A stretch of 39,378 nt of DNA from a virus (lineage: Duplodnaviria > Caudoviricetes). The stretch lies in the IMG/VR virus record IMGVR_UViG_3300025835_000012, positions 1 to 39,378 of that record. One strand, 5' to 3'. This document shows, piece after piece, positions 3,492 to 39,378 of the stretch; positions within the stretch are counted from its first letter, which is position 1, and each line of letters starts with the position of its first letter. The notes below the pieces were generated by a model that saw only the letters and a program-made list of their open reading frames with translations, searched no databases and was not told the origin of the DNA. The position numbers and the translations under genes are program-made.

Positions 3492-4142
3492 TTATTCTGT
3501 GATGATTTCAAAACGTTTCAACACACCGGGGCTGTACGCATTCGCCATACCGTGCCACTTCATACCGTCTCGCGACCGCCAGTCTCTCCATCTCGCGGAA
3601 AAAAGTACATCATTTACATCAGCAACAGCACGAAAATCACGACAACCTTTCTCGATTTGTTTTTCGATGCTGTGAAAATCTTGAGAACGTACAAACGCAA
3701 TATTGTCTTTATACCGCTTGTTTCCAGTGAACCACTGGAACAAGCCATGATCTGAAGTCGGCCCCTTTGCGTACATGTCCCACCGTGATTCTGCCTCGAC
3801 CATAAACACAGCATCAATACTGCCACACTCGCGAATAAGCTTTGGAATCATTTCATTGATTTTGGCAAGGTCCGCCTCAGTGTGGAACTTGTCCTTCAAC
3901 CTCTTCACTGACACAATCTTTTTGCCAACAAATGGGTTTTGGTAGTGTAACGTCGGTGCCTTGATATACCTCCGCAGTGTCACCGTTCCGTCGGCGGCCA
4001 AATAGCTCTGATATGCCGTGAACTTCACGGGCTTGTCTGCCACCGTGTGCGGTGAGGGCACAGGGAGAATCGCGGCGTTGCTCGCTGGAAGCCAGCATAG
4101 AACAACTCCCAGAAGAAACAGGTAAAAGAAAAATCGGTACAT
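3492..4142 (-). CDS. Secreted lytic transglycosylase (SLT/lysozyme-like fold)
   Basis: Signal peptide MYRFFFYLFLLGVVLCWLPASNA; SLT motif I (AES, catalytic Glu) and motif II (GLFQ). Confidence 0.75.
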   Translation of the reverse strand: MYRFFFYLFLLGVVLCWLPASNAAILPVPSPHTVADKPVKFTAYQSYLAADGTVTLRRYIKAPTLHYQNPFVGKKIVSVKRLKDKFHTEADLAKINEMIPKLIRECGSIDAVFMVEAESRWDMYAKGPTSDHGLFQWFTGNKRYKDNIAFVRSQDFHSIEKQIEKGCRDFRAVADVNDVLFSARWRDWRSRDGMKWHGMANAYSPGVLKRFEIITE

Positions 4143-4153
4143 AGAAAAGAAAG

Positions 4154-4504
4154 TTACGAGTTGAGAATACACCCGCGCACCGTACGTTTCCCCCACTGGT
4201 TTGCGGCAAGACGTCCAGCGTCACCGTGCCCCATCCAAATATCCAGACGATCGTACGCGTATCCACGCTTCCCAGCAGGAACAATCGCACCACCACGGTC
4301 TTCGACGGTATACGTCTTTCCGTTGATCTGGATCTTCGTGCCAAACGCGTACTTCGCAGGAGCCGCCATCATACCATCAAAAACAGGTTTACGGGACGCA
4401 CCATGTGTGCCGTTTCCTTGCAACCGTTTTTCTTTGGCAAGTGTTCCCATGTTATAGGCGCGTTGGCCGGGGAGAGGAGAATAGTATGCTGTCACCACAA
4501 ACAT
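4154..4504 (-). CDS. 3D (three-Asp, MltA-like) domain protein; probably the frameshift extension of the upstream ORF
   Basis: VTAYY...AAP..Y.FGTKI...VEDRGGAI...RLDIWMG...WGKR are 3D hallmarks; no signal peptide of its own; frame open through the slippery site at 4579-4573. Confidence 0.85.
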   Translation of the reverse strand: MFVVTAYYSPLPGQRAYNMGTLAKEKRLQGNGTHGASRKPVFDGMMAAPAKYAFGTKIQINGKTYTVEDRGGAIVPAGKRGYAYDRLDIWMGHGDAGRLAANQWGKRTVRGCILNS

Positions 4505-4566
4505 CTGGCATGTATCCAGTTCTGCTGCATGTGCTTGCGGGAGAATAGTTTTCGACGGTTTCGCGT

Positions 4567-4875
4567 CTATTCTTTTCCCAACGCATCGGACTTCGCACGC
4601 AACTCTTGGATTTTCGTTTTCCGTTCGTTGGCAAGTGCGTTGACCTCTGCTTGTTTCTGCTGTGCTTCAGTGATAATCTTCTGCTTCTCTGCCCACGTTG
4701 CTTGTAGGCGCTTCACTTCAATCTCCAGTTCTATTACTTGTGCTGCATACTCGCGGTACTTCGCTGCTGCTGGATCAAAGACATTGTTCCATGCTGCACC
4801 GCCGGCGACAAGAGCAATCGCGCTCGCGACGCCTACCGCACCCAAAACAAATTTGTTGAAAAGAATGTGTGTCAT
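4567..4875 (-). CDS. Membrane-anchored coiled-coil protein (102 aa)
   Basis: N-terminal hydrophobic helix FVLGAVGVASAIALVAGGAAW, then a heptad-rich Q/E/K/A segment; ends TTG GGA AAA GAA TAG. Confidence 0.75.
   Translation of the reverse strand: MTHILFNKFVLGAVGVASAIALVAGGAAWNNVFDPAAAKYREYAAQVIELEIEVKRLQATWAEKQKIITEAQQKQAEVNALANERKTKIQELRAKSDALGKE
4573..4579 (-). other. Candidate -1 programmed frameshift heptamer G_GGA_AAA
   Basis: X_XXY_YYZ in the correct phase, one sense codon before the stop; the -1 frame is the 3D-domain frame. Confidence 0.7.
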
Positions 4876-4882
4876 GTTTGTA

Positions 4883-5242
4883 TTATTGTAAAGGAATGAA
4901 CACGCCTGCAACATGCAGGATACTCATCAGTACCACACCAAGGAACACCACCCATGCAACGATATTGGTCCAGTCTATAGAGGGGAGAGATCGTCCTACA
5001 GGACGTTTCGCCCATTGATCTTTTTCCGACTGTGGGATTACCTGCATCATGTGTTTCGCCATAAGATTCTGCACATCGCGCAGTATCAGTGGGATATACT
5101 TCTTCCCGTATTTTGTGGCCGGGTTCAACCGTTGTGACATAGCACCTTCACTGATCCCGTACATAGACGCAAGATCTCTTTGTGTGAGTTTTAAGATTGC
5201 CATGTCACAGACGAGCAGTGCCTTTTTTTGTTGAATAGACAT
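4883..5242 (-). CDS. HTH protein with a C-terminal transmembrane helix (119 aa)
   Basis: LTQRDLASMYGISEGAMSQRLN is a clear Cro-like HTH; C-terminal IVAWVVFLGVVLMSILHVAGVFI; TAATG coupling with the upstream gene. Confidence 0.8.
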   Translation of the reverse strand: MSIQQKKALLVCDMAILKLTQRDLASMYGISEGAMSQRLNPATKYGKKYIPLILRDVQNLMAKHMMQVIPQSEKDQWAKRPVGRSLPSIDWTNIVAWVVFLGVVLMSILHVAGVFIPLQ

Positions 5243-5484
5243 TAGATACGAGAGAAAAAAGAAGTATTTACATAATCCATCGCGGGGTTGTAGAACCGCT
5301 GGAAGAAATCTTCCTTCGTGCTCCATACACCGAGATGTGAAAAATCACCAAACAACTCCTCGCCGTCTTCAAACGTATACGGCTCGACTGGTGCTCCTTC
5401 GCGACGTGTTGCTTCGAGCAGTCCGCGCATATATAGCACGAGCTGGTCATAAACCACGGTCTCCACACGAGTTTTTTTGTCCAT
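5242..5484 (-). CDS. Hypothetical protein (80 aa), first gene of the leftward arm
   Basis: ATG at 5484, downstream of the leftward promoter; stop overlaps the next start. Confidence 0.65.
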   Translation of the reverse strand: MDKKTRVETVVYDQLVLYMRGLLEATRREGAPVEPYTFEDGEELFGDFSHLGVWSTKEDFFQRFYNPAMDYVNTSFFSRI

Positions 5485-5516
5485 AAGCAGTTGCGTGAAA
5501 AAGTAAGGACAGCACC

Positions 5517-5545
5517 ATCGTAGCAAACACCCTCCGAATTGTCAA
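5517..5545 (-). promoter_or_regulatory. Leftward early promoter
   Basis: TTGACA (5545-5540), 17 bp, TACGAT (5522-5517) with an extended TGn motif. Confidence 0.75.
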
Positions 5546-5573
5546 CTATTTTATTACAAATGTTCAGAAAATA

Positions 5574-5617
5574 TTGACAACAAAGGAGAGCATCTATAGG
5601 ATAAGGGTGTTCCTTAT
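5574..5617 (+). promoter_or_regulatory. Rightward early promoter with an inverted repeat at the start site
   Basis: TTGACA (5574-5579), 17 bp, TAGGAT (5597-5602); ATAAGG-N5-CCTTAT at 5601-5617. Confidence 0.75.
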
Positions 5618-34599: not shown

Positions 34600-35271
34600 A
34601 TGGGGAGTACCAATAGACCATCATGGATCGTCGTCCACCATACTGCTGTATCGTACGATAAGAATCCAAGCCAACTCAGTGCGACGAACACCTTTCATAA
34701 AAACAAAGGGTTCCCGCAGTCGTCGCTTGGATTTTTTGTCGGGTATCACGCGATGGTAGAAAAAGACGGGCGTGTTATTATCACCCGCAAGGATAGTGAT
34801 ATAGGCGCACATACGTCGCAAGACAACATGAACTTTAACTCTGTGGCAATCTGTTTCACCGGGAACTTTGATAAGGAAGAACCAACACTGGAGCAGTGCA
34901 AGGCAGGACTATCGTGGATTAAAGGCAAGATGTCTAGCCTGCATATCCCCGCATCGAAAATCAAACCGCACCGGAACTGGGCGCCAAAGACGTGCTGGGG
35001 TAGCAAGGTCCCTGATGATATTATTTCTTATCTTGAACAACGTTGTATGGTCGTCGATGAAACACCTTCTTCTTGGGCGCTTCCTTCTTTTGCGAAAGCA
35101 GCAAAACTCGGCATGAGTGATGCACGTCCGAAAGAAGAAGTGGGGACAAGCCGTCTCCGGTTTATCCTCAATAAGTTGTATCAGAAACAGGTGATTGAAG
35201 AAAAAGACGCGCCTGTCACCTACGAAGAATATATCCACGCCCTCGACAAAGCGGGCGTATTACCTGCATAA
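34600..35271 (+). CDS. Endolysin, N-acetylmuramoyl-L-alanine amidase (Amidase_2, T7-lysozyme-like)
   Basis: IVVHHTA, GYH, GAH, N..SVAICFTGNF and PHR...KTCWG motifs; C-terminal SLH-like segment (SSWA...RPKE). Confidence 0.9.
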   Translation: MGSTNRPSWIVVHHTAVSYDKNPSQLSATNTFHKNKGFPQSSLGFFVGYHAMVEKDGRVIITRKDSDIGAHTSQDNMNFNSVAICFTGNFDKEEPTLEQCKAGLSWIKGKMSSLHIPASKIKPHRNWAPKTCWGSKVPDDIISYLEQRCMVVDETPSSWALPSFAKAAKLGMSDARPKEEVGTSRLRFILNKLYQKQVIEEKDAPVTYEEYIHALDKAGVLPA

Positions 35272-39304: not shown

Positions 39305-39378
39305 TTAGCCGTTGCCGTTGCCGTAGCCGTAGCCGTTGCCGTCGCCGTCGCCGTCGCCGTAGCCGTTGCCGTAGCCGT
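39305..39378 (-). CDS. Gly-rich repeat protein, 3' part
   Basis: Reads ...GYGNGYGDGDGDGNGYGYGNGNG-TAA, in frame with 1-82. Confidence 0.75.
   Translation of the reverse strand, partial: GYGNGYGDGDGDGNGYGYGNGNG
39308..39378. repeat. Hexamer microsatellite (GCCGT[A/T/C])n at the right end
   Basis: Directly visible. Confidence 0.95.

Follow-up and report, generated by a model that had tools for sequence, protein, structure and literature searches.

A candidate programmed -1 frameshift joining a membrane-anchored coiled coil to a predicted lytic transglycosylase domain in a Caudoviricetes phage

Results

The locus studied here lies at positions 4154–4875, on the minus strand, of a complete 39.4-kb phage record (Duplodnaviria, Caudoviricetes; IMG/VR IMGVR_UViG_3300025835_000012, positions 1 to 39,378); the window is this whole stretch of 39,378 nucleotides. 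We confirmed the anatomy of the locus. A zero-frame ORF of 102 aa (4567..4875, (-)), hereafter the stalk, begins with a transmembrane (TM) anchor, a helix predicted at aa 9–27 (4795..4851, (-); best 19-aa KD 2.11), and continues as a predicted coiled coil at aa 37–99 (4579..4767, (-)) in one continuous heptad register, with a KD of +1.34 for the a/d register and negative values for all six others. The ORF ends TTG GGA AAA GAA TAG, and its stop (4567..4569, (-)) overlaps an ATA codon of the -1 frame (4570–4568). One sense codon upstream of the stop, Gly100–Lys101 is encoded by the slippery heptamer G_GGA_AAA (GGGAAAA; 4573..4579, (-)) in X_XXY_YYZ phase relative to the stalk ORF; the first-pass annotation had reported an in-phase heptamer at the end of this TM/coiled-coil ORF, and both its positions (4579–4573) and its phase were verified. 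The open stretch of the -1 frame extends from 4666 to 4154 (-), reads GKRIDAKPSKTILPQAHAAELDTCQMFVVTAYYSP and overlaps the stalk by 33 codons, within which G_GGA_AAA is the only site with full re-pairing of both tRNAs. The -1-frame portion of the predicted fusion (4154..4573, (-)) comprises 139 aa, a linker plus the 3D domain, and with 101 residues of stalk amounts to 240 aa, matching the earlier estimate of a stop-free passage into the 3D domain and a fusion of about that length. Stop readthrough and a +1 shift were both rejected as routes into the domain: the zero frame and the +1 frame each close ahead of it.

In-phase heptamers occur 26 times in the 12,307 codons of the 46 phage genes. For a given gene, the chance that one falls among its final three codons is P = 0.006, the chance of one anywhere in the 33-codon overlap is P = 0.067, and two gene-end heptamers were observed among the 46 genes against 0.29 expected; given these figures, the heptamer by itself is suggestive only. 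Gly100 and Lys101 are invariant in five of five stalk sequences at the protein level, conservation that would arise by chance with a probability of ∼0.26. The second gene-end heptamer, T_TTT_TTC, lies three codons upstream of the stop of the ORF at 5242–5526 (-), whose -1 frame remains open for 125 codons and enters the following HTH gene, with a TAATG overlap; this heptamer is probably due to chance and the overlap to translational coupling.

Programmed -1 frameshifting commonly, though not universally, involves a 3' stem-loop or pseudoknot 5–9 nt downstream of the slippery site. Two downstream stems, AGAATAG/CTATTCT and GACG/CGTC, can be drawn here and had been proposed as a stimulator, a proposal not borne out by their stability, which was no better than chance (z -0.36 to -1.05 in five of five windows). 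The GACG/CGTC pairing is a weak 4-bp hairpin (4554..4567, (-)) located 5 nt past the heptamer (-4.0 kcal/mol, z -0.36, not significant), while 285 of 362 background 45-nt windows were as stable as the downstream hairpin region or more so, and the AGAATAG stem begins without a spacer from the heptamer. A 5' internal Shine–Dalgarno stimulator was likewise absent from the 25 nt upstream of the heptamer. In E. coli, AAA in the A site shifts less readily than AAG, as in A_AAA_AAA versus A_AAA_AAG (PMC5009743). The missing stimulator and the weaker A-site codon would suit an origin of the joined product in unselected, background-level ribosome slippage, or in transcription, with RNA polymerase inserting an extra base at the G3A4 run. 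However, this run holds only four A, which is short for transcriptional slippage, and the purifying selection on the 3D frame described below points to a useful product level, leaving both forms of slippage very unlikely.

The junction is identical in two further sequences, L002 (6,423 nt, 100%) and L027 (9,874 nt, 6 mismatches, 0 gaps), and in contigs of runs X1 (16x) and X2 (10x). An indel, which the first-pass annotation had named as an artefact to be excluded, is thus absent at the junction in four assemblies, an agreement that rests on contigs, not reads; the window itself may have been derived from X1 and X2. No contig from runs X3–X7 or X10 spans the junction. Relative to the phage, diverged strains in X7 and X10 carry 17 scored differences across the two ORFs, 15 of them synonymous, and 12 of the 14 differences in the 3D frame were synonymous; this comparison drew on low-depth contigs and excluded both a partial match stemming from a different organism and two duplicated X6 sites. 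Both halves of the locus therefore appear to be under purifying selection. An indel introduced by assembly, or a pseudogene left when a natural frameshift recently disrupted an ancestral in-frame fusion, would account for the in-frame fused relatives presented below, and the reliance on contigs, with X1 and X2 as possible sources, leaves it some room. Against it stand the agreement of the four assemblies, the synonymous bias in the 3D frame and the fact that stalks at 62–82% identity stop at the same place, and we give this explanation hardly more than a slight chance, marginally below that of background slippage.

The 3D frame contains no ATG, GTG or TTG upstream of 4504, and the ATG at that position (4502..4504, (-); Met26 of the -1-frame portion) was the start chosen by gene callers. 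As the earlier annotation had stated, this frame lacks an export signal of its own: no hydrophobic segment is found in its first 30 aa (maximum 13-aa KD 0.85). Shine–Dalgarno cores precede only one of 31 true phage starts, which are G-poor and SD-less, with a mean of 1.8 G in the 20 nt before true starts versus 5.7 before internal ATG codons. The contexts of ATG 4504, ATT 4546 and ATA 4570 each score under 30 of the 31 true starts, and Met26 is replaced by N, K or P in five of six relatives and is an internal Met in P0066. Upstream of this only ATG lies the linker motif ILPQAHAAE (4520..4546, (-)), which resembles a signal-peptide c-region; P14, A16, A18 and C24, all of which precede Met26, are invariant in seven of seven phage-type clade sequences. 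Strand 1 of the structure model also begins ahead of Met26, at residue 23. ATG 4504 is therefore probably not a real start.

Cys24 (4508..4510, (-)) and its predicted disulfide partner Cys137 (4171–4169, (-)) are each invariant in seven of seven clade sequences. Over 130 scored family members, 13 carry both cysteines, 108 neither and nine a single one (P 9e-7 with 10 phage-type rows dropped, a statistic that ignores relatedness), and this co-occurrence suggests a disulfide and hence export.

Two separate genes could also be read here, with the 3D ORF starting or re-initiating at ATG 4504, ATA 4570 or ATT 4546, its product a cytoplasmic enzyme and the heptamer a coincidence. ATG 4504 would yield most of the domain, the ATAG junction resembles an ATGA coupling overlap, three relatives (P0004, P0058, P0059) were called from a Met directly before LPVAHA, and both the overlap-wide chance of a heptamer and the missing stimulator fit this picture. 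The poor contexts of all three codons and the lack of conservation of Met26 speak against it, as do the Cys24 and conserved motif that would be lost, a product without an export signal, unlike 159 of 169 homologues that have an in-frame hydrophobic segment, and the in-frame fusions P0066 and P0001. We regard two genes as improbable, though as the strongest competitor of a joined product.

The conserved A-H-A within the linker had been likened to a signal-peptidase site that could release the enzyme. While the motif is indeed conserved, and the metagenome-assembled genome (MAG) holding the phage encodes SPase I, ordinary signal peptidase I cleavage requires a site adjoining the h-region, and the A-H-A lies 89 residues past the end of the TM helix here and about 280 in P0066. 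Given these distances, release by ordinary signal peptidase I is doubtful, and release of the tip from the stalk by any route is possible but rather the less likely outcome; the motif may be what is left of a signal peptide that came with the captured domain, or it may serve release through a different route. A similar K/R-T-I...H-A-E stretch after a TM segment was seen by eye in two distant phage 3D proteins (L022, L118).

The 3D domain (4163..4513, (-)) is a 3D/MltA-type double-psi beta-barrel, modeled with a pLDDT of 89, and a predicted lytic transglycosylase. MltA and YuiC were the top hits in structure alignment by VIA-align (MltA: Z 10.2, rmsd 2.2, 105 aligned; YuiC: Z 9.4, rmsd 2.8, 85 aligned), Foldseek matched MltA (E 0.001), a profile search matched YuiC (E 0.0025), and the nearest ESM Atlas clusters carry 3D (0.94–0.95). 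Pfam PF06725 (3D) scored 15.5 against a gathering threshold of 23.8 bits (E 0.02). The aspartates of the reference enzymes are MltA D297/YuiC D151 and the catalytic D308/D162 (PMC4499186); D94 (4300–4298, (-)), the predicted substrate-binding Asp, aligns with the first pair, and D113 (4243–4241, (-)), the predicted catalytic Asp, with the second. The first 3D Asp (MltA D261/YuiC D129, the YuiC numbering being our deduction) is replaced by Ala73, and Ala occupies this position in 19 of 19 family sequences. With D94 and D113 matching YuiC and Ala at the first Asp, the domain is predicted to function like a 3D lytic transglycosylase that lacks one name-giving residue and falls below the Pfam cut-off.

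A gene encoding a signal peptide, a 3D domain and peptidoglycan-binding repeats was found in 355 of 401 Gracilibacteria-class genomes and is thus near-core. In this class-wide cellular gene, including the copy at G001:C3:68240-68662 (L028), Ala stands at the first 3D Asp, and Pfam 3D fails to detect most copies. The cellular proteins, ∼400–580 aa with wall-binding repeats, are each encoded by one in-frame gene, and the MAG's own copy shares 62% identity over 115 aa with the phage domain. Proteins of the phage clade, in contrast, stop directly past the barrel, and a quick tree places them on a separate branch that is not sister to the MAG's gene. From these comparisons, the phage clade appears to have captured a Gracilibacteria-class domain, lost the wall-binding tail and exchanged the signal peptide for a stalk. 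An in-frame hydrophobic segment is also encoded at 67 of 95 unique viral 3D loci, and predicted export is the norm for the 3D family.

In-frame fusions among homologues, to which the first-pass annotation had pointed as a check, were recovered. P0066, the best of 626 hits in a 50% library, encodes in one frame a TM helix, a coil, a middle domain, IIPVANAAE, C..F and the 3D barrel, and P0001 encodes a coil, ILPQANASE and the 3D barrel in one frame; the P0001 coil does not significantly resemble the stalk of the window, and P0001 as called lacks a TM. P0066 and P0001 fall in one clade with the phage domain (SH-aLRT 90; quick tree, 62 rows x 121 columns). The P0066 middle domain has an M23-like HxH motif by eye; its M23 nature was not confirmed, and P0066 is possibly a two-enzyme version of the same gene. 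Stalk homologues P0062, P0064 and P0065 (80–82% identity) are of the same size and end LGKE-stop, and P0063 (62% identity), also of the same size, ends VGK-stop. On the 3D side, clade members P0002, P0050, P0054 and P0004 were called without any N-terminal signal. The start-less 3D calls P0002, P0050, P0053 and P0054 match stalk homologues in the length of the longest contig (9,737; 2,921), from which a shared contig is deduced, and given that two 3D calls were matched to the contigs of stalk homologues in this way, the stalk/3D split probably recurs in a relative.

Longer fused forms of the stalk were absent among 939 candidates. The -1 arrangement was not found at any of 95 unique distant viral 3D loci (119 in total, from 28 of 64 parts; filter plus 10 by eye), so the design is not, at least in this sample, general among phage 3D genes. 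At three of the distant viral loci, a TM-bearing ORF lies in another frame (+1 type; L130, L204) or is cut off by same-frame stops (L132); these arrangements may represent errors or other recoding.

When viral sequences were scanned with the 3D frame, with the stalk, with the neighbour gene and with alignments A1, A2 and A3, the only matches were distant 3D genes and this same phage. A metagenome scan of 48 of 64 parts gave 13 loci, among them the window's own sequence (L012) and no second split locus, and a genome scan returned only the same phage in a MAG. The stalk was absent from the three other order genomes and 400 phylum genomes searched, and phage-type 3D from the 400 class genomes searched; INPHARED gave one weak match. 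A DNA pattern combining heptamer and linker matched 44 viral loci, one being the present phage and 43 looking like chance; a phase excess (30 of 44) stemmed from near-copies and was set aside. With no junction DNA of any relative found across the viral, metagenome and genome scans, the heptamer is documented in one phage only.

The phage encodes RecT, SSB, DnaB, terminase, portal, capsid, an M23/LysM virion protein and a late amidase, and the ORFs scanned included no integrase. Both window ends (1–70, 39330–39378) fall within the same GCCGTTGCCGTAGCC-type short repeat, and L027 joins them, consistent with a circular genome opened inside a Gly-rich repeat. Genetic code 25 was rejected in favor of code 11, given that TGA terminates eight of the 46 genes. 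The same phage is present as a 39.3-kb scaffold (L027) of a MAG titled Candidatus Gracilibacteria, and this binning, together with gene ancestry, suggests a Gracilibacteria host. A host without ribosomal L9 was rejected, as L9 is encoded in three of four order genomes, the MAG among them.

Structural genes occupy 11.6–34.6 kb and a late amidase endolysin 34,600–35,271, and the stalk/3D locus sits in the leftward non-structural arm, as the third gene past a sigma-70-like promoter match (TTGACA-17-TACGAT, extended TG; 5517..5545, (-)) that heads the leftward gene run. Promoter calls here are consensus matches only, with three sites found versus 3.3 expected in shuffles. The matches at 5545–5517 and 5574–5602 stand back to back, each with a perfect TTGACA, and the pair (5517–5602) separates the leftward arm from the recombination and replication genes. 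This setting also bears on whether the locus is a lysis cassette, in which the stalk would act as a holin or Rz-like spanin and a cytoplasmic endolysin would come from the 3D ORF. The stalk does have weak matches to Rz-like PHROGs (best E 0.001; Atlas 0.77). However, these matches reflect a generic TM plus coil, the locus and the late amidase endolysin lie on opposite arms, 30 kb apart, and the Cys pair argues for export. Moreover, the overlapping ORF encodes a 3D domain without a lipobox and, in contrast to Rz/Rz1 spanins, the locus has no outer-membrane lipoprotein partner. A lysis cassette is the least probable of the explanations we considered.

Discussion

The first-pass annotation had proposed that a -1 frameshift joins the stalk to the 3D domain outside tail and capsid genes. 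We found indirect support for this fusion in the absence of an indel and of a credible start, in protein conserved ahead of 4504, in fused relatives and in the terminal Gly-Lys of the stalks. From these sequence comparisons, we consider it likely that the locus uses a programmed -1 frameshift to dose a membrane-tethered predicted lytic transglycosylase, expressed from a probable early operon.

Under this frameshift model, the stalk gene and the 3D frame would be one recoded gene, transcribed early. Most ribosomes would halt at TAG and produce the 102-aa membrane-anchored coiled coil as a bare stalk, while a minority would slip by -1 on G_GGA_AAA and produce the 240-aa protein, the tRNA-Gly re-pairing from GGA to GGG and the tRNA-Lys from AAA to AAA. 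The slip rate would presumably be low, as no RNA stimulator takes part in this scheme. The TM helix would adopt an N-in/C-out topology and export the C-terminal part, in which Cys24 and Cys137 could form their disulfide. Bare and armed chains may then assemble into mixed coiled-coil bundles in which few tips carry the enzyme, held ∼60 residues, or roughly 9 nm, off the membrane. Such a small tethered dose could remodel the host's own peptidoglycan early and without lysis, separately from the late amidase endolysin. A bolder extension, in which recoding that arms a few stalks is a repeatedly evolved class, with shedding at P-x-A-x-A far from the membrane and a tip that acts on the wall of the prey cell of an ultrasmall, probably epibiotic host, seems to us unlikely.

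One known comparison is the lambda gpG/gpGT frameshift, which the first-pass annotation had attributed to the same heptamer class. The lambda site is G_GGA_AAG (PMC7618472), not G_GGA_AAA, and the ratio is 30:1 (PMC5009743; PMC7618472), so the parallel holds for the class but not for the exact heptamer, the last base being A here rather than G. The two systems are non-homologous: the phage locus would join a membrane protein to a predicted enzyme, not chaperones, and it lies outside the tail region, not between the major tail and tape-measure genes. Ig-like domains added by frameshifting to capsid and tail proteins of phages T3, A2, A118 and PSA (PMC5009743) offer another likeness, as a C-terminal accessory domain placed on some chains that relatives may encode in frame (PMC5009743). 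In contrast to these additions, the domain added here would be a predicted wall-cutting enzyme, and a stalk in the host membrane would carry it. The phage domain shares its fold and the two Asp equivalents with MltA and the YuiC/Sps family, which includes YorM of a B. subtilis prophage, and differs from them in the Ala at the first Asp (D129/D261), the sub-threshold Pfam score, the missing signal peptide and the frame change. Its similarity to the Gracilibacteria-class cellular proteins is likewise accompanied by the loss of wall-binding repeats and of the single in-frame gene structure.

The phage frameshifts covered in a review are nearly all in tail chaperones and capsid or tail proteins (PMC5009743), and SEA-PHAGES reports 2,397 of its 2,476 annotated frameshifts as tail chaperones (PMC10885494). 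In the titles and abstract openings of the literature searched, we found neither a published frameshift that links a muralytic domain to a membrane stalk nor one in a Gracilibacteria phage. The mechanism, already known from phage tail and capsid genes, is thus likely put to a new use in this type of gene. If the frameshift is real, recoding would extend to remodelling of the host envelope via a dosed, exported muralytic enzyme, and this would be a first candidate in a phage of Patescibacteria (CPR), one whose translation is SD-less and without the usual bacterial 5' stimulator. Gene callers would also mislabel such loci as a hypothetical protein followed by a truncated cytoplasmic 3D protein.

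The gene downstream of the locus (3492–4142, (-)) has no Pfam, PHROG or PDB match, and its single-sequence fold has a pLDDT of 34. It encodes a signal peptide of its own (MYRFF...ASNA-A) and, on visual inspection, what we take to be an SLT-like Glu motif, and may represent a second exported wall enzyme.
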